From contig CAZSDS010000001.1 in NCBI GenBank assembly GCA_964605735.1, positions 198,771 to 262,770 on the forward strand: a stretch of 64,000 nucleotides of DNA, in the 5' to 3' direction. Of the stretch, positions 25,793 through 47,666 are shown in pieces; position 1 is the stretch's first letter; each line of letters starts with the position of its first letter. A model generated the notes under the pieces. The model was not told where the DNA came from. It worked only from the letters and a program-made list of their open reading frames with translations, and did no database searches. The stretch is from an uncultured Candidatus Saccharibacteria bacterium (GTDB lineage: Bacteria > Patescibacteriota > Doudnabacteria > UBA920 > O2-02-FULL-48-8). The position numbers and the translations under genes are program-made.

Positions 25793-25810
25793 ATGCAGCG
25801 CTCTTTTTTA
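25780..25810 (+). terminator. Intrinsic terminator
   Basis: Sequence GAGCGCcgcatgaatgcaGCGCTCttttttattt. Confidence 0.55.
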
Positions 25811-27655
25811 TTTGCCTGATTGTTTTGTCTCTAAAGCCACTACTTTTTTCTTTGCTTGTGATGTTCTTGTGGTCTTAGCCAGCTTTTCAGAGTGTCTAGT
25901 TTTTCGTTCTTTGATCTTTCGTTCCTTTTCAGCTTGTATTCTGGAAGCGACCACAGTCCTTATCAGTTCCCTGAACAGCGGTCCAGGGGTAAGTGGTCTG
26001 GATTTAAACTCCGGATGGAACTGCACTCCCACGAAGAATGGGTGATTCTCTAGCTCCACAATTTCCACCAGTTGTTTGTCCGGAGTGGTCCCGGTCACCA
26101 CCAAACCTTTGGCTTCCAGCTGTTTGCGATATTTGTTGTTGAATTCGTAGCGGTGGCGGTGGCGTTCAAAGATTTTCTTCTCGCCATAAGCCTGGAAAGC
26201 CTTACTTCCTTCTTTCAGCACGCATGGCCAGGCGCCCAGACGCATTGTTCCACCATACTCTTTTTTGAGCATTTTCTTTTCCTGGTCAGACATTATGTGG
26301 ATGACAGGATTAGGAGTTTTAGGGTCGAATTCCGTGCTGTGAGCATCCTTCAGCTTGGCGACGTTGCGTGCAAACTCAATGGTCGCGATTTGCAGGCCCA
26401 GACAAAGGCCCAGATAAGGCACCTTGTGCTCCCGGCAATATTTCGCGGCAAGGATTTTTCCTTCAATTCCCCGCTTGCCAAATCCTCCCGGAACTACAAT
26501 ACAATCCATTCCTTTCAGCAAATCTGTGCCCTTTTTAGCGACCTGCTCCGCGTCTATCCAGTGGATTTTAACGTGAGCGTCATTTGCCCCAGCCCCGGCT
26601 TTAATGGCTTCAATCACGGACAAATAGGTGTCCTTCATGTTCATATACTTGCCGACCAGCCCCAGGTTTATCTGGTGTTTCTTTGGTTTGCGAACGCGCT
26701 TAAGCAGGCTAACCCAGGATGTGTCTTTTCTGCCGCTTGGTTTAAGGCCGAATTTGTTTATGATCAGCGAATCCAGCTTATACTTTTCCAGGATCATTGG
26801 TACTTCGTAAACCGTGTCCACGGTTTCAAGAGGGATCACAGCTTTTGGTTCCAAACCCACGAACAAGGCAATTTTGTTTATTATTCCATTGCGGATTGGA
26901 TAATCAGAACGGCAGATTACTACGTCAGGCTGGATTCCCATAGCCTGCAGGTCGTGGACTGAGTTTTGCAAAGGCTTGGTTTTCAACTCTTCGCTTACAG
27001 CCAGGTAAGGCACAAAGCCCACATGCACGTAGATCACGTTTTCTCTGCCAACGTCATAAATCATCTGGCGGATGGCTTCAATGAAATGGGTGCCTTCGTA
27101 ATCACCCACAGTCCCCCCGATTTCAGTGATCAATACATCTGCTTTTGATTGTTTTGCTGCAAATTTAATTCGGTCCTTAACCTCATCCGTGACGTGCGGA
27201 ATCATCTGAATTGTTTTGCCCAGAAATTGCCCGGACCGTTCTTTTTCCAAAATGCTTTGGTAGATTTGTCCAGTCATGACAGAAGAAGCCTTGGACAGGC
27301 TTACGTCCACAAAACGCTCGTAATGACCCAAATCCAAATCAGTTTCTCCCCCATCGTCTGTAACAAACACTTCTCCGTGTTCAGCCGGATTCAATGTCCC
27401 TGCGTCAACGTTCAGGTATTGGTCAAATTTTTGCATAAACACAGAAAAACCGCGTGCCTTGAGAATGTTCCCAATAGACGCCGCAGTTATGCCTTTTCCG
27501 AGGCCAGAAAGGACTCCGCCGGTAACGAAGATGTACTTTGTATTCTGTTTTGCTGGCCTTGAAGCCGCTGACCTTGAAATCGTCCTGACTTTTTTTGCTG
27601 TCAGTTTTGCTGTTCTTGCTGTGTTTTTCTTTTTGACTGCTCTGTTTCGTTTCAT
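25808..27655 (-). CDS. pyrG: CTP synthase with Lys/Arg-rich N- and C-terminal extensions
   Basis: The synthase domain ([16 protein letters not shown]) and the glutaminase domain ([27 protein letters not shown]) are both present. At 615 aa it is longer than the usual ~545 aa, because of a ~38-aa basic N-terminal tail and a ~45-aa K-rich C-terminal tail. Confidence 0.85.
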
Positions 27656-28095
27656 AGTGCTTCAACATTTACCGTAACGGTGGCCTTGTGCTTGTCAGTA
27701 AGTTTTAGTTCTACTTTGTGGCTTCCCGTGGTTTTTATGGGGTTAAGAATTTTTATTTGCTTAGGCTGGAGATCCACTCCAAAGTGGGCTCGTATCTCAG
27801 TAATTATATCCTGTTCGTGAACTCCTGCAAAGAGCTTGGCCCCATCAGCCTTTTTCTTTAAGGTGATTTGTCTATTCTGGATCTTTTTTTGCAATTCTGC
27901 GAGTTTTTGTTCCTGCCTTGCCAGTTTTTCTGTATGTTCTTTCCTCTCCTTGTTGATTTTATTGACTTGCGACTGGCTGGCTGGAACTGCAGAGCCGTTT
28001 TTCATTAAAAAATTTCTGGCATAACCGTCAGAAACTTCTTTTATATCCCCTGCACGCCCCAAGCCTGAAACGTCCTTGGTAAGTATCACTTTCAT
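27652..28095 (-). CDS. rplI: 50S ribosomal protein L9
   Basis: [30 protein letters not shown]..., 147 aa. Confidence 0.85.
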
Positions 28096-28158
28096 GCAGG
28101 AATTATATAAAACTTGTGTGTGTGCAGCAAGTTTTTTAGTTTTATGTCGGTTCTCGCG

Positions 28159-28187
28159 TGGACATAGATTATTGCTCCGGTTATAAT
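28159..28187 (+). promoter_or_regulatory. Near-consensus sigma70 promoter (TGGACA-17-TATAAT)
   Basis: The -35 tggaca is at 28159-28164 and the -10 tataat at 28182-28187, with an exact 17-nt spacer. The predicted transcription start is about 28194. Confidence 0.5.
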
Positions 28188-28193
28188 GTGGCT

Positions 28194-28603
28194 ACTTTAG
28201 GAGGAATAAAATGGACACTGCCCAAGAAATCTCAGATCGAGTAGATAGGATCTTAGAAGGGCCGAAATTTCCCTTCTGGTTACTCTGCAAGTTGATCTGG
28301 TTCGAGCTTCGAGGGAAACAGGTGGAGTCTGTAATACTCGGTCCTGCTTACGAAGTTCACTTCGCCGGCCACGGCCACAACTAGCGCCATGAAGCCGCCG
28401 GCGCTCAAACAAAAAACCAGCGGCGGTATTCTAGCCAAACTGGTTCATCTGTTCCGCTGCAACCATCTCTGGTGTCCCTGGTGCGAGAAAAAACTCTGCC
28501 GGGGCGACCACAGTGAATGTCAGTTGTTCGAGACCGAAGTAAACGGCCCGAATTCCAAACTGATCCCGAACTAATACCTGGCCCTGAGTCAGGTTTTTAT
28601 TTG
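28194..28603 (+). ncRNA. Unclassified structured ncRNA candidate (~410 nt; possibly RNase P RNA or another housekeeping RNA)
   Basis: A GC-rich (~55%) region with no conserved CDS lies between the convergent rplI and ftsX genes. It has the promoter above and its own intrinsic terminator at 28583-28603 (CCTGAgTCAGGtttttattt). Several strong internal stems are visible, including agaagggccgaaatttcccttct and ccgccg...cggcgg. It contains only short ORFs (57 and 61 aa). Confidence 0.4.
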
Positions 28604-28610
28604 GGCAAAA

Positions 28611-29525: not shown

Positions 29526-29685
29526 TGTTGTTTTTTAGAATACTTTGTAGTTGACGGACGGAACCATTTGTTTGGGCAGAGGCCGTCGGAGACCGTTCTC
29601 AAACGGTCGAGACCTGAGCAGAAAATTTAACGTGAGCTAAATTTTACTGCGTACTCTGAACAGACAAATGGTGCAGTCCTAAAAA

Positions 29686-30397: not shown

Positions 30398-31499
30398 TTA
30401 TTTTTCCTGGTTGCGCGAAAATTCGAGGTAATTTTTTATGAATTCGTCCAAATTTCCTTCCAGAACGCTTTCAGCGTCAGAAGTTTCGTAATTCGTCCTG
30501 TGATCTTTGACAAGCTTGTATGGATGAAGCACATAAGAGCGAATCTGGTTGCCCCATTCCGCACTGTGGTACTCTCCGCGCAGCTGAAGTTTTTCCTGGC
30601 GCTGTTTTTCTTCTTCAAGGGCTGCGAGTCTGGCTGACAAAATTTTTATGGCCTGATCTTTGTTCTGCGCCTGGGAGCGTTCGTTTTGGATGGTGACTGT
30701 AATGCCGGTTGGTCTGTGTGTGGCTCGGATTGCCGAGTATGTTGTGTTTACGGATTGCCCGCCGTGGCCGCGAGAAGTTTTTGCCTCAAAATCGATTTCT
30801 GAAAGATCCAATTTAAATTGTTCCTGATGGATGACTGGCAAAACCTCAACTAAAGAAAAAGATGTTTCTCTGGTTTGTGACGAGTTGAACGGCGATTGCC
30901 GGACCAGACGGTGGACCCCTGCTTCGCTCTTTAGATAGCCGTACGCGTAGTCACCGCTGACTTCAAAGACAACGCTTTTGATTCCGGCTTCTGTGCCGCG
31001 GCTTTCTTCAATGATAGTTACACCGAACCCTTTCTTTTCTGCCCACCTGTTGTACATGCGCAAAAGCATTTCTGACCAGTCCTGGGCATCCACCCCTCCT
31101 GCTCCGGCATGGATGGACATTATAGCGTCATTTTGGTCGTATTTCCCCGACAGAAAGGTGGTTAAGCGCATTTCCTCAAAAACTGCTTCCAGAAGGCCAA
31201 ATTTGGCCTTTAAATCGGCCTCAATTGCCTTATCTGGCTCATTTTGAGCGATTTCAGCTAAATCCAAGGCGTCTTTTACGTCTTTTTCCAGTTTCCCCCA
31301 TTTTTCAACCACAGTTTTAAGGGCCGTGGCTTCTTTGGCTACGGTTTTTGCCCTCTCCTGGTCTGCCCACAAACCTGGCTCTGACATTTGGTCTTCCAAC
31401 TCTAAAATCCTCTGTTTTTTCTGTGGGAGGTCAAAGATGCTCCTTAAGATCATTCATCCGATCTTCAAGCGTTTTAAATTGCCGTATTAATTCTTCCAT
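30398..31499 (-). CDS. prfB: Peptide chain release factor 2, expressed via programmed +1 ribosomal frameshift
   Basis: The SPF and GGQ motifs are present. ORF0 runs from the ATG at 31499 (MEELIRQFKTLEDRMNDLKEHL) to an in-frame UGA. The classical shift site CUU UGA C (31436-31430) is preceded by the SD-like AAGGAG with a 3-nt spacer. The +1 frame continues DLPQKKQ... to the stop at 30398. Confidence 0.85.
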
Positions 31500-31689
31500 A
31501 AGTTATTCAAATTCCATTAGCGCTCGCGGTCCTCCGCCTTACAGGACCGCATAAATCCCATATCTTATACATTCCTTTATTGTGGGATTTTGCTTAGTCT
31601 CGTCCGCTGAGGCGGACTGCGATGTCCTGACGGCAGAGATCCCGCGAGCTAAGTGCAAATTTCTTTTTTCAGTATTATTTACGCATAGC

Positions 31690-32121
31690 TTACTCTCCGG
31701 TGGATCCGAAACCGCCGCGTGCAGTTTCAAGTAACTGATCTACCTCTTCCCATTCAACTTGCTGAACTGGCAGAAAAATTCCCTGGGCAATTCGCTCGCC
31801 TTTTTTCACCTCAACGGGCAGGTCTGTAAAGTTGTACACCATAATCAAAGCCTCGTCATCCGGTCCGGCATAGTCAGGATCAAGTATACCCACGCTATGA
31901 GGGAACATCAGCCCCTTCTTCTTTGGTGTACTGCTGCGTGAAAAAATTGCCAAAAAATATCCTTCCGGTGGTTCGAAATACAATCCTGTATGAAGCAATT
32001 TAATTTCCTTTGGCTTAATAACGGCGTCTTCATTAGATGCAATATCAAAAGCCGCAGATTTTTTCGTGCCATATCCTGGCAACGGGACACTCGGGTCGAT
32101 TCTTCTAATTCTTACTTTCAT
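31690..32121 (-). CDS. dut: dUTP diphosphatase (dUTPase)
   Basis: 143 aa with the motifs GILDPDYAG and RGGFGSTG. Confidence 0.8.
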   Translation of the reverse strand: MKVRIRRIDPSVPLPGYGTKKSAAFDIASNEDAVIKPKEIKLLHTGLYFEPPEGYFLAIFSRSSTPKKKGLMFPHSVGILDPDYAGPDDEALIMVYNFTDLPVEVKKGERIAQGIFLPVQQVEWEEVDQLLETARGGFGSTGE

Positions 32122-32171
32122 ACTTAGATTTTAACATAAACAAGTTGTTAGTGCTGATTTGATATATTCCA

Positions 32172-32522
32172 AATAAAAAAGCAGGACGTATGGAACGGCC
32201 TGCGGAAATGAAGATGTCCTCCATGGACGATGCATCGACTCTGATGAGTTTAGCCGTGGGAGCTACCCCATCTCAAGACGTGTGTCTTGATAGGAAACGG
32301 ATATGGAGGTCCGAGTTGCCTCTAGACTTTGTAACTCCAAGAGCAATCCGCTCCTACAACCCCGCATTGCCTGCGGTTTAGGCTTTTCCGTCCTAGTGCA
32401 CAGAATGCACGTGTCTCCCTACTCAAGTTTGCTGTCCTCTTTCAGTTACCCATATCATTGACTTTCGCCAAGTAGGAACGGAATCGGCATGCGCCTTTCT
32501 CTCCCAGCAGAGTCAGATGCAA
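32172..32522 (-). ncRNA. Unclassified structured ncRNA candidate (~350 nt, minus strand)
   Basis: A GC-rich region with no CDS lies between the rplA operon terminator and dut. The minus-strand promoter is TTGACA (32556-32551), a 16-nt spacer, then TATATG (32534-32529) with an upstream TG. The minus-strand intrinsic terminator is GCAGGCCGUUCCAUACGUCCUGC followed by UUUUUUAUUU (32203-32171). Internal hairpins include gugcauucugugcac and caagacacacgucuug. Confidence 0.4.
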
Positions 32523-32556
32523 TAAAAGCATATACCAGAGAAAAGATATCTGTCAA

Positions 32557-32582
32557 AACAAAAAACCGCTCTTTGTGAGCGG
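32557..32582 (-). terminator. Intrinsic terminator of the secE-nusG-rplK-rplA operon
   Basis: The minus strand reads CCGCUCacaaaGAGCGG followed by UUUUUUGUUUU. Confidence 0.55.
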
Positions 32583-32597
32583 CTTATTGTTCTAGAA

Positions 32598-33272
32598 TTA
32601 GAGTTGTACTTTGATTCCAGGACCCATTGTTGCGTTTACTGTAACGTTTGAAATGAATTCCTTTTTCAAAGTGGAAGGCTTTGTGGCTTGCAAAGCTTCC
32701 ATAAAGGCGTTGAAATTTGCTGTTAACTGCTCTTCTGAGAAGTTGCTCTTGCCCAACAACATGTGCACGTTGCCGGATTCGTCGTTCTTGAATTCCATTT
32801 TGCCGCCAGCAAACTCTTTCACAGCCTTGCCTACTTCCGGAGTAACAGTTCCGGTTTTTGGGTTAGGCATGAGCCCGCGCGGACCCAAGAGTTTTGCGAT
32901 TACAGCCATTTTGGCCATCATAGCCGGTTCGGCAATAGCAACGTCGAAATTAAGCTCTTCGGTTTCCTTAATCTTTTTGATCAAGTCTTCGCCACCAACC
33001 AGCGCTGCCCCGGCTTCAGTAGCTTCCTTCTCTTTGGCTTCAGTTACGAAAGCGGCAATGCGCTTGGTCTTCCCTGAACCATGAGGCAAGGTTACTGTTC
33101 CGCGGATAGCCTGGTCCGTTTTCTTGGCGTCAATGCCAAGGCGAACATGAACTTCCAGGTTGCCTACAAACTTTGTAGTGGCGGTTTTCTTGGCTAAAGC
33201 AATTGCTTCAGTCAGAGAGTACTTCTTGTTTGCGTCTACTTCTTTCCTAGCAGTTTCTAATCTTTTACCCAT
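32598..33272 (-). CDS. rplA: 50S ribosomal protein L1
   Basis: The ATG at 33272 (MGKRLETARKEVDANKKYSLTEAIAL) was chosen, with the SD AAGGAG 7 nt upstream. The ORF-track start at 33314 would add a 14-aa extension. Confidence 0.85.
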   Translation of the reverse strand: MGKRLETARKEVDANKKYSLTEAIALAKKTATTKFVGNLEVHVRLGIDAKKTDQAIRGTVTLPHGSGKTKRIAAFVTEAKEKEATEAGAALVGGEDLIKKIKETEELNFDVAIAEPAMMAKMAVIAKLLGPRGLMPNPKTGTVTPEVGKAVKEFAGGKMEFKNDESGNVHMLLGKSNFSEEQLTANFNAFMEALQATKPSTLKKEFISNVTVNATMGPGIKVQL

Positions 33273-33326
33273 AAATCTCCTTGTGGTGCGAGCGACCATT
33301 TTAAGGTCTCCCACATTAAAGTTAAA

Positions 33327-33752
33327 TTAAATTTCCTTGTCTTTTCGGATTCTGTTCCAGTGATAGAAATACAGTGGAACTCCAACAATCAATAATGCTA
33401 CAGAGTTGGCTGCCTGACTTTGCCTGCTGGCGGTTCTTTGCTCTTCGCAAATGCGCCTGTTCTCTTCTTCCTGGGCGAGCTTTTCAGCTTCCGTCAATTC
33501 CTGTCCATCAGGCTTGACTGCTGAAGGGATTGACCGTTCAAAGCAATAGTTGTCTGCTTTGGTGAAGATGTAAGTCTTCAGCCCGAGGTTCAGCACGGTA
33601 ACCAGACCAATAATCGTGAGGACCAGACCAACTGACGCAAAGATGTATAGAAAAACTTTGCGCAAAGTAAGATTCATAGCCATATATAGTATTGTTCCGA
33701 TGAGCACTATCGCCAGAATAGGACCTAAGATGGCGAGAATAGTTATCATCAT
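33327..33752 (-). CDS. Hypothetical 3-TM membrane protein inserted between rplK and rplA
   Basis: 141 aa. It starts 17 nt after the rplK stop and ends 54 nt before rplA. It has three hydrophobic helices plus a charged cytoplasmic segment (EEENRRICEEQRTASRQ). Confidence 0.45.
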   Translation of the reverse strand: MMITILAILGPILAIVLIGTILYMAMNLTLRKVFLYIFASVGLVLTIIGLVTVLNLGLKTYIFTKADNYCFERSIPSAVKPDGQELTEAEKLAQEEENRRICEEQRTASRQSQAANSVALLIVGVPLYFYHWNRIRKDKEI

Positions 33753-33769: not shown

Positions 33770-34192
33770 TTATTTGATTTCGATGCCCATTGAGCGAGCT
33801 GTGCCAGCCACGATCTTTTCAGCTGCTTCAACGTCAGCAGCGTTCAAGTCCGGAAGCTTGGTTTCAGCAATTTCACGCAACTGCGCCTTGCTGATTTTGC
33901 CAACTTTGTTCATTAAAGGGTTGGCAGCGCCTTTTTCAACGCCAGCTGCTTTTCTGATCAAAATTGAAGCTGGTGGAGTTTTTACGATAAAGCTATATGA
34001 GCGATCTTCGTAAATAGTAACTTCTGCTGGGACGGAAATGTCACCTAACTGAGAAGTTTTTTCGTTAAATTCCTTGAGGAATTGTCCGATGTTGAGCCCG
34101 TGGGGACCCAATGCAGTACCGGTTTGCTGGGAAGGAGTCGCTTTGCCTGCTGGCAAAAGGATCTTCACCATTGCCTTAACTTTTTTAGCCAT
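33770..34192 (-). CDS. rplK: 50S ribosomal protein L11
   Basis: [38 protein letters not shown]..., 140 aa. Confidence 0.9.
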
Positions 34193-34203: not shown

Positions 34204-34749
34204 TTATATCTTCTTAATCTGTAAGAAGTCTAATTCTAAAGGTGTCTCTCGACCGAAAATAGACACCAAAACTTTAACCTTGCCTTTCTCTTCGTCAACT
34301 TCGTTGGCCTTACCTTCATAATCTTTGAATGGGCCGTCCATAATCCTGACCAGGTCTCCTGGTTTTACGTCGATCTTGTACTTCGGTTCTTCCACACCCA
34401 TTCTCTTTTGCAGTGATGTAACTTCTGATTCGGAAATCGGAGTTGGGATTGTTCCGGAACCAACGAACCCGGTTACGTTAGGGGTGTTTCGAACCACATA
34501 CCAGGAATCATCAGTTACTATCATCTCCACCATTACATATCCTGGGAAAATCTTTTCCTCTACAGTGGTGCGCTTGCCATCCTTAATCTTGATCTTCTTT
34601 TCTTTAGGAACCATGACATTGAAAATTTTGTCTTCCATGCCCATGGATTCAATACGTTGTTTGAGGTTAAAGGCGACACTGTCTTCATAGCCTGAATAGG
34701 TGTGAAGCACGTACCAGTGTTTTTCGCCTGTGACTTGTTGTCTTGCCAT
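34204..34749 (-). CDS. nusG: Transcription termination/antitermination factor NusG
   Basis: 181 aa with an NGN domain ([11 protein letters not shown]) and a C-terminal KOW domain. Confidence 0.85.
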
Positions 34750-34788: not shown

Positions 34789-34974
34789 TTAGCGATTAAC
34801 GCCGAGTTCGAGAAGTTTTGTAAGCCCGTAGTCTACTGCACCCAGGAATGCCGCTACAACCAGTGAGATTGCAATAACCGCAATGGTGGTTCTAACCACT
34901 GATTTGCGATCCGGCCAGACGACTTTCTGCAGTTCTGACTTCACTTCTCTGAGGAATTGGATTGGGTTGGTCAT
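34789..34974 (-). CDS. secE: Preprotein translocase subunit SecE
   Basis: 61 aa with a single C-terminal TM, in the conserved position upstream of nusG. Confidence 0.75.
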   Translation of the reverse strand: MTNPIQFLREVKSELQKVVWPDRKSVVRTTIAVIAISLVVAAFLGAVDYGLTKLLELGVNR

Positions 34975-44678: not shown

Positions 44679-47666
44679 TTACCTGGCTTCGTAGTCTCGA
44701 TATTGGCAATCATGGGATTTCTTTTTATCCAATTCATAGAAGCTGTCCGTTTTGATTGTTTGAACGATCTGCTCTATGTTCTCCAGAAACTCAGATTTGA
44801 TTTTTTCAATGTCATCCTGCGTACCCGCAAACTCGATGATGTTGTTCAGGTCCTCAAGATCCCAGTAACTCAGGTTATTGACTTTCTTTTTCAGGAAATC
44901 CTGAGCAGCCCACTGATAGCCTAAAAGCTGTTTTTTATCCACTTTTTCAAGCTTGGTGCGCGCTTTAGCGCTTGTTTTGTAATCGATAATATTAATGCTA
45001 CCATCAGGATTCTCGTGGAAACAGTCAATGACCCCTACGTACTTGTACGGGCCAAGTTTTAGCTTGAAGAATTTTTCTGTTTCCGCTGGAATAATTTGCC
45101 TTGCAGTTACCTGGTTGTAATAATTTTCCAGCAATCTGAAGCCTCTTTTGCGGAATTTATCCTTATCCCATTTGCTCTCATACCAGTCGTCTATCCAGTT
45201 TTCGTTATAAAGCTGGAAGAGTTTATCCAGAGGCGGATACTCAACCTTTTTTGACGGCTGTTTTCCAAAAAGATCAACTTGTTTAGCCGCGTTCATCTGA
45301 ATGATTAGTTGTGAGAAAAGCTGGATGGTTTTGTGAATAGTTTGTCCAAACGAAGTGTAAGAATTGCCTGGGGATGGCAATTGATACAGGTATTTGTATT
45401 TGAATTCTAGTGGGCATTTTAAAAAGCTGGAAATGCTGGTCCATGAAAATGATTCCGGGATAACCAAGTGGCTTTTGGTCGGAAGCGGCAGCGCTTCCTT
45501 TTGCTTAAATACAACTACGCCTGTTGGCGCAGATTTAGTTCCCACTGTTTCCAACTTGGTCTCGACAAGAAATCTGGAGGGTTTTTTGTTTGTACTGCCG
45601 CCGTAATCATCAGCCCAGGCAAGGTACAGAAATTGTTTTGCCCGGGTAAGCGCCACGTAAAACAGCCTTCTTTCCTCCATTAAGTGTATATCTCCCTCGG
45701 AAAGAATCTCCTTTATCAGTTTGTCCGGTAACTCAATCTGCTCTCGCCTGTCCCTGGACGGGAATCTCGCTTCCACCATGTTTACAATGAACACGCATTT
45801 AAATTCCAGGCCCTTGGAGGAGTGCACTGTCATCACCTTAACGGCTTCCGGCCCAATATTCGGGTCAAAAGCCAAATCGCCGGTATCTCCCGCGTCCAAT
45901 TCCAGCTTAATCCTATTCAAAAAAGCCTTAAGCGTTTTGTCATCGCTTTCAGTTTCAAAATACTGGGCTTTGGTGTAAAACTGCTGAAGCAGGCTTCTGT
46001 TTTCCACGTTCTGCACTGAATCCGCTGCCAGATCTTTGGTAATCTGCAGGTCTTCGAGTATTTTTATAAAAAGTTCAGAAACAGGCATATGCCTAGCCCA
46101 GTTTGTGTGCTTATCAAGCAAAATTTGAAGCTCTGCAAGTTTTTTGTAGGTTGATTCTGACACTGTTACGATCCCAGGAACCTGTTTTATCACCTCAAAA
46201 AGGGAAAGCGCCTTTCTCTTGGAAATCTGAGACATATTAATAAGATCTGCAGATTCTATTTTGAATTTTTTTATGTTCAGGATTCGGAAGAGGTTTTCGC
46301 TCTCGTGATAGTTGTCCAGAAGCTTAAAATATGCCAGCAAATCCAAGATAAAAGGTTTTTTATATAATCCCCGGTTTGCCACATACATGTATGGTATGCC
46401 GCGCTTGTTTAACTCGCTGATGAAAGGGTCAGCGTGATCGTTCGCGCGCACCAGAATGGCGAAATCGTTATAACCAAAGCCAAGGGTTTCCGTCAGCTCA
46501 ATTATTTTCTCCGCAACTACGCTTGCTTCTTGATGGACAGTTTGCGCATGCAAAACTTTGATTTCGCCTGCTTCCACTGAATGTGAAGCAAGTTTTTTAG
46601 AAATTTCCAGTTTAGTTTCCAGCCGTTCCGGATTGTTAAGCTGGATAAAATCATAGGCAAGATCCAAAATCTGCTGTGTTGACCTATAGTTGTCTGTCAG
46701 AGTAATATCCTTGGCTTCAGGAAAATCTTCCTTAAATTTTAAGATATTGGAAATTGAAGCGCCGCGGAATTTGTAAATTGACTGGTCATCATCACCCACC
46801 ACCGTGACATTATTTCGCGGGCTGGCGACCAGTTTAACCATTTCATATTGGGCAAGGTCAGTATCCTGAAATTCATCCACCAACACGTATTTGAACTTGT
46901 TCTGGTAATATTTCAGAATTTTTGGACGAGTTTGAAACAGTTGAACAGTGTAATTAATCAAATCACCAAAATCCAAATATCCTTGTTGCAGCAAGGTGTG
47001 TTGGTATTTATGGTAGGCGTTGGCGATTTCGTTTATTCTTTGAATCTCTGCATGGTCGAGTTCTGCGGTTGTTTTAGATTCGCTTTTTTTCGATTTCTTT
47101 TTTGGCTTTTTTTGGGTGGTGTCTGAGGATAAAGCGAGCTCCTGGGCATACTTCAGGTAAAGCTCTGGAGTTATTCCCTCCCCTTTTGCCTTCTGAAAAT
47201 GCTTGAGCAGTGAATGGATGAATTTATTGGGATTACCCATGGGGCGATAATAATCCAGGTCAAAATCATAAAGATTCTTTTGCATCAGCATCCAGGCCTG
47301 GGTTTCCGTCAAGACTTTGAAATCCCCTGGGAGCCCGATGTCCAGGGCGTGTTGTTGAAGAATTTTTTGCGCAAAAGCGTGGAAAGTGGAGATGCTAATT
47401 TCTGCATAGCCGAGAGGCATAAGCTGGTCGACTCGGTCGTTCATTTCCGCCGCCGCCTTTTCCGTAAAAGTCAGTGCCAGAATTTCCTCAGGCTGGGCCA
47501 AACCCTGTTCAATCAGCCAGGCAATGCGGCGGGTCAACACCGTGGTTTTGCCCGTGCCTGCACCCGCAATAATCAAAAGCGGGCCATTGCCGAATGAAAT
47601 AGCCTTTTCCTGCTTGGTATTTACTCCCTCCAGAATTGCTGATTTTTGCTTGAGTTTTTGGGGCAT
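44679..47666 (-). CDS. UvrD/PcrA-family helicase fused to C-terminal RecB/Cas4-like PD-(D/E)xK nuclease (AddA-like helicase-nuclease)
   Basis: 995 aa. The Walker A motif is LIIAGAGTGKTTV. The C-terminal nuclease motifs are SFSWTSISSFLKCPLEFKYKYLY, GQTIHKTIQ, VIDCFHE...IIDYKTS and QLLGYQWA. Confidence 0.8.
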   Translation of the reverse strand: MPQKLKQKSAILEGVNTKQEKAISFGNGPLLIIAGAGTGKTTVLTRRIAWLIEQGLAQPEEILALTFTEKAAAEMNDRVDQLMPLGYAEISISTFHAFAQKILQQHALDIGLPGDFKVLTETQAWMLMQKNLYDFDLDYYRPMGNPNKFIHSLLKHFQKAKGEGITPELYLKYAQELALSSDTTQKKPKKKSKKSESKTTAELDHAEIQRINEIANAYHKYQHTLLQQGYLDFGDLINYTVQLFQTRPKILKYYQNKFKYVLVDEFQDTDLAQYEMVKLVASPRNNVTVVGDDDQSIYKFRGASISNILKFKEDFPEAKDITLTDNYRSTQQILDLAYDFIQLNNPERLETKLEISKKLASHSVEAGEIKVLHAQTVHQEASVVAEKIIELTETLGFGYNDFAILVRANDHADPFISELNKRGIPYMYVANRGLYKKPFILDLLAYFKLLDNYHESENLFRILNIKKFKIESADLINMSQISKRKALSLFEVIKQVPGIVTVSESTYKKLAELQILLDKHTNWARHMPVSELFIKILEDLQITKDLAADSVQNVENRSLLQQFYTKAQYFETESDDKTLKAFLNRIKLELDAGDTGDLAFDPNIGPEAVKVMTVHSSKGLEFKCVFIVNMVEARFPSRDRREQIELPDKLIKEILSEGDIHLMEERRLFYVALTRAKQFLYLAWADDYGGSTNKKPSRFLVETKLETVGTKSAPTGVVVFKQKEALPLPTKSHLVIPESFSWTSISSFLKCPLEFKYKYLYQLPSPGNSYTSFGQTIHKTIQLFSQLIIQMNAAKQVDLFGKQPSKKVEYPPLDKLFQLYNENWIDDWYESKWDKDKFRKRGFRLLENYYNQVTARQIIPAETEKFFKLKLGPYKYVGVIDCFHENPDGSINIIDYKTSAKARTKLEKVDKKQLLGYQWAAQDFLKKKVNNLSYWDLEDLNNIIEFAGTQDDIEKIKSEFLENIEQIVQTIKTDSFYELDKKKSHDCQYRDYEAR

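Follow-up and report, generated by a model that had tools for sequence, protein, structure and literature searches.

A block of minus-strand genes in the 64,000-nucleotide (nt) stretch of contig CAZSDS010000001.1 (assembly GCA_964605735.1) analysed here, the whole of which we call the window, contains between rplA and dut an intergenic element that has the appearance of a self-contained small RNA (sRNA) gene. The window comes from a genome of Candidatus Doudnabacteria, within the Candidate Phyla Radiation (CPR), and the nearest relatives of its L1 protein were found in Doudnabacteria metagenome-assembled genomes. The gene string upstream of the element is closed by an intrinsic terminator after rplA, which a terminator scan reported as a hairpin of 9 pairs (5 of them G-C) followed by a T-rich tail, and the minus-strand order continues after prfB with ftsE, ftsX, rplI and pyrG (Table 1).

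Directly after the rplA terminator we found a sigma-70-type promoter for the element, just as an original prediction for this DNA had proposed, with every part in its place: the TTGACA box, the 16-nt spacer, TATATG (32534-32529) and the upstream TG (32537-32536). The promoter scan also gave an alternative with an 18-nt spacer and TATGCT. Generic promoter-like matches were not enriched in the region (4 versus 2.9 expected), while the composite TTGACA-N13-15-TGnTATA, a pattern devised only after the site had been seen, occurs once in the 64-kb window, at this promoter, with 0.03 occurrences expected (3 of 100 shuffles). At the other end, the minus-strand terminator that had been predicted upstream of dut is also present, as the hairpin GCAGGCCGUUCCAUACGUCCUGC (32203-32181) and the U-run UUUUUUAUUU (32180-32171); it was missed by the scan tool because of one internal mismatch. 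The earlier description of the block as free of coding sequence agrees with the lack of any minus-strand open reading frame (ORF) longer than 39 amino acids, whereas its description as GC-rich stands only in relative terms (GC content of about 0.50-0.52 in the core versus 0.449 in the whole window). The predicted transcription start near 32523 falls 2-3 nt ahead of a 13-base-pair (bp) helix that closes the predicted fold.

Table 1. Positions of the element, its parts and the neighbouring genes and spacers in the window.
Feature	Position	Strand	Remarks
Element promoter	32529-32556	minus	-35 TTGACA 32556-32551, 16-nt spacer, extended -10 TGgTATATG 32537-32529
Predicted primary transcript	32175-32523	minus	~349 nt; deduced from promoter and terminator positions
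Closing helix, 5' arm	32508-32521	minus	UGCAUC-U-GACUCUG; pairs with 32231-32243
5' domain	32347-32482	minus	closed by 11-bp helix UCCGUUCCUAC/GUAGGAGCGGA, pair probability 0.86
3' domain	32253-32344	minus	closed by GGAGUUAC/GUAGCUCC, pair probabilities 0.6-0.93
Closing helix, 3' arm	32231-32243	minus	CAGAGUC-GAUGCA; inverted repeat
Element terminator (intrinsic)	32171-32203	minus	GCAGGCCG-UUCCAUA-CGUCCUGC, then UUUUUUAUUU; stem pair probability 0.99-1.00
dut promoter	32119-32136	minus	TGTTAAAAT 32136-32128, 6 nt, ATG 32121-32119; outside the element, downstream of its terminator
63-amino-acid ORF (protein P0121)	32190-32381	plus	rival reading; annotated as a gene in public records (Logan, NCBI)
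secE	34789-34974	minus
nusG	34204-34749	minus
rplK	33770-34192	minus
DUF5671 membrane protein	33327-33752	minus
rplA	32598-33299	minus
rplA terminator (intrinsic)	32563-32585	minus	AAGCCGCUC-ACAAA-GAGCGGUUU, then U-run; closes the secE-nusG-rplK-DUF5671-rplA string
dut	31690-32121	minus	element sits between rplA and dut
dut-prfB spacer	31499-31689		~190 nt here versus ~18 nt in locus L082
prfB	30398-31498	minus
ftsE-ftsX spacer	29526-29685		160 nt here versus at most ~20 nt in relatives
ftsX-rplI spacer	28096-28610		515 nt here versus 18 nt in locus L001; site of the "28.2-kb RNA" of the original prediction

The fold of the element, which is a single-sequence prediction, was more stable on the minus strand than all shuffled controls (fold energy z = -2.98; none of 100 shuffles was as stable), and its 290-nt core reached z = -3.6 (against 20 shuffles only), compared with z = -1.9 for the fold of the plus strand, making the structure strand-asymmetric. 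The predicted core of about 290 nt consists of the closing helix (13 bp, mean pair probability 0.96-0.97, zero G-U pairs), a 3-bp mini-hairpin and two multi-hairpin domains. Of the several hairpins in the 5' domain three are well supported, namely one with a GAAA tetraloop (32471-32458), GUGCAU-UCU-GUGCAC (32410-32396) and CCGCA-GGCAA-UGCGG (32376-32362), while the 3' domain holds a perfect 7-bp hairpin, UCAAGAC-ACAC-GUCUUGA (32290-32273), and an unpaired pyrimidine-rich stretch CUCCAUAUCCGUUU that contains CCUCC (approximately 32308-32295). The perfect internal hairpins noted earlier were thereby recovered, the last two hairpins listed being examples. A long-range pairing of 32449-32437 with 32343-32331 was predicted as an alternative. 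No tandem repeats were found in the element, which is thus unlike a TIGR or CRISPR array. The strings of a GAAA tetraloop and its 11-nt receptor (UAUGG / CCUAAA) are present; this candidate was rejected, as the flanking bases cannot lengthen the receptor helix. As modelled, such a compact core (about 290 nt) is closer in appearance to a stable non-coding RNA than to a messenger RNA.

To place the element in its genomic setting, relatives were fetched by means of the L1 protein, and the six closest (L1 82-87% identical; loci L001, L082, L083, L084/L085 and L086) all keep rplA next to dut, with the order continuing into prfB, ftsE and ftsX in the five that have longer contigs. The hairpin-after-stop arrangement at rplA recurs in relatives, and the rplA-dut spacer measures 61-148 nt in the six versus 476 nt here. 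In L001, L082 and L086 the rplA terminator is followed by (T/A)GCTAAAAT exactly 6 nt ahead of the dut ATG; the form TG(C/T)TAAAAT-N6-ATG, as in our sequence, also precedes dut in L001 and L086, and AGCTAAAAT does so in L082. From this arrangement dut has its own conserved, apparently leaderless promoter. The rplI gene is similarly arranged, with TATAAT 6 nt before its ATG (28093-28109), and neither dut nor rplI has a ribosome-binding site; the 6-nt spacing between -10 box and ATG at both genes suggests that leaderless messenger RNAs occur in this clade. We concluded that the element is a lineage-specific insertion, approximately 385-420 nt long, that separates the rplA terminator from the conserved dut promoter.

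As the element has its own promoter and terminator and dut has a separate, conserved promoter, the element would be neither a leader of dut nor a 3' untranslated region of rplA. The latter, in the form of a long rplA untranslated region, was the case named in the original prediction as one that would overturn it, and it is argued against by the position of the element after the rplA terminator and ahead of the separate dut promoter. A cis-acting dut leader (a riboswitch or attenuator), working through read-through of the terminator at 32203-32181, would fit an element that shares the strand of dut and has its terminator 50-60 nt ahead of the dut ATG, and alternative pairing is possible in principle through the 8-mer CCGCAGGC, found once in an internal hairpin and again in the terminator's 5' arm. 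Such a repeat is expected by chance inside 350 nt, however, no riboswitch, leader or aptamer of Rfam matched, and the conserved dut promoter stands between terminator and gene and is common to relatives that express dut without the element, all of which makes a dut leader highly improbable.

The region downstream of rplA was seen to be a variable hot spot across Doudnabacteria (loci L001-L054), with response regulators, dCTP deaminase, sigma factors and kinases among the genes found there. Other post-rplA gaps extend up to 1562 nt without an ORF of at least 90 amino acids, and several (e.g. those of L005, L010, L015, L016 and L029) share common motifs of 40-80 nt that have no Rfam match and do not occur in the element.

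Searches with known RNA families gave the element no assignment. Rfam at gathering score returned four tRNAs only from the whole window; at E<=10, the region 31400-32800 (1401 nt) yielded nothing beyond chance-level matches, which fell on the rplA terminator, and the 316-nt core (32215-32530) gave no match to RNase P RNA, transfer-messenger RNA (tmRNA), signal recognition particle (SRP) RNA or 6S RNA, leaving no relevant match for the element among 4227 families, SRP RNA and 6S RNA included. Matches weaker than about E=10 were not displayed in these searches, and the divergent CPR forms of PMC8172020 surfaced only at lowered bit-score thresholds. The covariance models of RNase P RNA (RF00010, RF00011, archaeal and other types) likewise did not match the element at gathering score or at E<=10, and ARAGORN, run on the window with permuted forms included, reported four tRNAs, no tmRNA, and no tRNA-like domain or tag frame in the element. 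An Infernal-type search, which had been proposed as a check of the prediction, thus found no family, and the suggestion that the element might be a divergent rnpB or ssrA is left unsupported. L1-binding-site mimicry, an idea prompted by the neighbouring rplA, was set aside as well; it drew on short sequence fragments only, and no match to an rRNA model supports it.

The hallmark of RNase P RNA is the P4 pseudoknot, formed by conserved regions CR-I (GAGGAAAGUCC...) and CR-V (ACAGAA..CGGCUUA), with its 3' strand adjoining P2. Because the RNase P RNAs of CPR bacteria can miss Rfam thresholds (in 10 of 35 circular CPR genomes they were detected only once thresholds had been lowered; PMC8172020), this defining core was inspected by hand. 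The CR-I-like GAGGAAAGUCC is absent from the element, its sole match in the window with at most 2 mismatches being at 47477-47489, and inspection found neither CR-I nor CR-V sequences. Two internal segments had been flagged, GGAAAAGCC (32389-32381) and ACGGCUAAAC (32257-32248), and the best P4-like pairing to ACGGCUAAAC was one of 4 bp (AGCC/GGCU), with the P4-like 3' strand separated from the P2-like helix by 8 nt instead of the expected 1 nt or so. The loose P4 halves of the original prediction therefore pair over 4 bp only, with no CR-I or CR-V beside them.

The element does resemble bacterial RNase P RNA (RF00010, RF00011 and the reduced CPR forms, PMC8172020) in size and topology: a core of about 290 nt, paired ends forming a P1/P2-like 5+7-bp helix, a small hairpin, two internal multi-helix domains and a gene layout with a trimmable terminator. 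Short likenesses to motifs of bacterial RNase P RNA (GGCUAAACUC, ACAGCAAAC and GGUAA..UGAAAG) point the same way, as does the existence of CPR RNase P RNAs that score below Rfam thresholds. Set against this are the empty search at E<=10 in a search space of only 316 nt, the missing CR-I, the short and misplaced P4-like pairing, the lack of a tRNA-like domain or tag frame that would mark a tmRNA, the lack of the element at this locus in six relatives, and the failure of 11 degenerate patterns to match in metagenomes of the Joint Genome Institute (JGI), which include relatives. With no detectable homologue in any of the collections searched, the element is unlike a universally conserved RNA. Judged by its sequence, it lacks the defining feature of RNase P RNA, and its topology is only loosely alike; we hold an RNase P RNA or tmRNA of extreme divergence to be barely credible, and have as little belief in an RNase P RNA or other essential RNA that has diverged too far for its P4 to be recognised.

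A protein-coding reading was considered next to the RNA readings. On the minus strand the longest ORFs are of 29-39 amino acids, no start inside the transcript is preceded by a ribosome-binding site, and a Pfam scan of 12 reading-frame segments of the region gave zero matches. On the plus strand, a 63-amino-acid ORF within an open frame of 72 codons carries a gene annotation in the Logan and NCBI records, and could be an orphan protein gene beside which the minus-strand signals are incidental. It has a possible extended -10 (TGATATATT, 32160-32168), an AGGA 3 nt ahead of its ATG and a weak terminator-like site (32369-32383), and an insertion nearby, between ftsX and rplI, does resemble a plus-strand cassette of small ORFs. 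Its codon score of 0.068 bits per codon exceeds the off-frame 95th percentile (0.015) but lies under the 5th percentile of real genes (0.112). The ORF had no Pfam or PHROGs match and found only itself among 5.8 billion proteins, and its AlphaFold2 model is of low quality scores (pLDDT 58.7, pTM 0.19) and almost without secondary structure. A HMMER search with the 72-residue frame against 1.84 billion representatives returned itself and one NHL-like repeat protein (E = 5.5e-4), which was rejected as a homologue; one stretch of 26-36 residues matched several blades, the rest of this large family was unmatched and Pfam was empty, and we judged it to be a repeat-amplified chance match. In addition, the start codon of the ORF falls in the loop of the terminator hairpin, and the frame accounts for just 192 of about 350 structured bases. 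We regard a plus-strand gene as improbable.

In the conserved gene block that holds the element, three further spacers are longer than in relatives, those of ftsE-ftsX, dut-prfB and ftsX-rplI. The ftsE-ftsX spacer contains a 136-nt fold (z = -5.97) whose closing stem is an imperfect inverted repeat of 26 nt, and the dut-prfB spacer a 144-nt stem-closed multi-hairpin fold (z = -6.47), neither with a Rfam match. The ftsX-rplI block had been presented in the original prediction as the other of two such RNAs in 64 kb. That pairing is weakened, since the block carries on the opposite, plus strand a promoter (TGGACA at 28159-28164, a 17-nt spacer and TATAAT at 28182-28187), an AGGAGG ribosome-binding site (28199-28204) ahead of an ATG at 28211, and two small ORFs, of 57 amino acids (28211-28384) and of 61 amino acids with a CxxC...C...C pattern (28389-28574). 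The small ORFs had no significant Pfam and no PHROGs match, and the 57-residue product, the one of the two for which homologues were sought, matched itself only; this insertion may be an orphan small-protein cassette rather than an RNA. The inserted spacer sequences are mutually unrelated and have no repeat copies within the window.

Elsewhere in the block, prfB has the classic programmed +1 frameshift, with a short first frame running from the ATG at 31498 to CTT TGA C (31449-31498), just upstream of the 351-residue main frame. The CTP synthase ORF (25808-27655) has lysine- and arginine-rich extensions at both ends, with about 40 extra N-terminal residues, which is unusual for the enzyme.

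We tentatively read the element as an orphan, independently transcribed, structured sRNA gene, a reading that we place somewhat short of an even chance, and a number of results weigh against it. Homologue searches were empty throughout: neither blastn nor nhmmer found a homologue over 80 rplA loci from GTDB genomes, Rfam found nothing on 21 of these 80 loci, and blastn against phage and plasmid records gave no match. Seven pattern scans of IMG/VR found no homologue, with 14-mer matches at chance frequency, none for four 20-mers and an 18-mer, and nine matches for a 19-mer that lay in coding sequence of unrelated phage contigs, 8 of the 9 being near-identical copies of one gene. Two scans of JGI metagenomes with 11 degenerate 24-nt patterns spanning the element found no relative, the source genome evidently being outside the collection, and when 515 kb of related loci were scanned with a single-sequence covariance model built on the 5' domain, the only match was the element itself. 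The element is absent from the rplA-dut locus in 6 of the 6 closest relatives. The only additional copies, retrieved by exact-protein look-ups, are identical and come from SRR7082966 and SRR7082976, two runs of apparently one study; occurring as it does in separate assemblies, the sequence is therefore no assembly artefact, but it is known as one sequence from a single genome. (Both Logan contigs stop within the dut-prfB spacer, at 31616.) Promoter-like and terminator-like sites are also common in AT-rich spacers, and intergenic stretches elsewhere in this genome that lack a promoter fold even more tightly (z about -6); strongly folding unique insertions thus appear to be a trait of this lineage, and a good fold alone is therefore weak evidence of function. 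Given one sequence, the element is a candidate and not a discovery.

The same observations are the basis of the main rival, in which the element is inert inserted DNA, a foreign or mobile remnant (foldback, similar to a miniature inverted-repeat transposable element (MITE), or decayed cargo) lodged in a recombination-prone spacer, with signals that are fortuitous or vestigial. Besides the empty homologue searches, this is favoured by the variability of the post-rplA spacer across Doudnabacteria, which holds different genes or gaps of 0-1562 nt, by the three other expanded spacers, two with unique stem-closed sequence (ftsE-ftsX and dut-prfB) and one with small ORFs (ftsX-rplI), and by the ends of the element, which form a 13-bp inverted repeat. 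Terminal inverted repeats of the kind that characterise MITEs are present accordingly (32521-32508 / 32243-32231), and in its lineage-specific intergenic insertion, its stem-closed fold and its coexistence with other stem-closed insertions in neighbouring spacers the element is similar to MITE-like and repetitive extragenic palindromic (REP)-like foldback elements such as the Rickettsia palindromic and Neisseria Correia elements. It differs from them in being single-copy in 64 kb, where the other insertions likewise occur once and each has a unique sequence, in lacking a clear target-site duplication, and in having a strong promoter and terminator of its own.

The borders of the element allow two interpretations. 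The T-rich tails at 32168-32180 and 32553-32565 are identical at 11 of 13 positions, reading TTTTTTGTTTTGA and TTTTTTATTTGGA on the minus strand, 385 nt apart, and could be a trace of insertion, as imperfect 13-nt direct repeats would be for an inert insert, or simply the tails of the rplA and element terminators. This second possibility counts against inert DNA, as do the unusually high quality and correct placement of the promoter, with 0.03 such sites expected per window, and the strand-asymmetric structure, which is unlike that of a purely DNA-level palindrome. Overall, we consider inert DNA a serious but unlikely contender.

The reading as an sRNA gene is set apart from the other insertions by the high-quality promoter, the terminator of its own, the strand-asymmetric fold and the pairing of the ends at the predicted start. 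Transcription, stability and any function of the element are inferred. The promoter, with its perfect -35 and extended -10, would set the 5' end of an RNA near 32523 and the intrinsic terminator its 3' end near 32175, and the first and last nucleotides of the core would then pair in the 13-bp helix around the two multi-hairpin domains. Such an RNA may act in trans as a structured sRNA, its compact shape being suggestive of a protein-binding or scaffold RNA; an alternative role would be that of a regulator, in which the unpaired CCUCC-containing pyrimidine stretch could pair with purine-rich ribosome-binding sites. The insertion of the complete promoter-RNA-terminator unit, after the rplA terminator and ahead of the dut promoter, would be peculiar to this Doudnabacteria lineage.

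Known stand-alone sRNA genes with a sigma-70 promoter and a Rho-independent terminator, of approximately 200-600 nt (6S RNA, raiA, OLE and ROOL-type RNAs), offer the closest format. The element shares with them an independent promoter-to-terminator intergenic unit without a coding frame, a compact multi-branched predicted fold with paired ends, and a GC content above that of the surrounding spacer. It is unlike them in standing outside all 4227 Rfam families, in being found in a single genome, and in having neither conservation nor covariation nor an evident protein partner gene.

If it is transcribed and stable, the element would be a large, structured, family-less RNA in an uncultivated, genome-reduced CPR bacterium. 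To our knowledge the non-coding RNA biology of the CPR is almost unexplored, and every base that is retained in such genomes is presumed to be under pressure. The locus also illustrates that a promoter, a terminator and a stable fold are insufficient to identify rnpB or ssrA, and in practice the element is of use as a target for the mapping of metatranscriptomes. As a long shot, the element may be the first known example of a new class of stable, structured non-coding RNAs in the CPR, acquired as a complete promoter-RNA-terminator cassette, and the neighbouring stem-closed insertions could share a process that seeds RNA structures into spacers. The wider pattern may outweigh the element itself: four spacers of one gene block are expanded by unique sequence that is missing from relatives, and three of them, the element included, fold strongly, which suggests that structured DNA or RNA turns over rapidly in this lineage.

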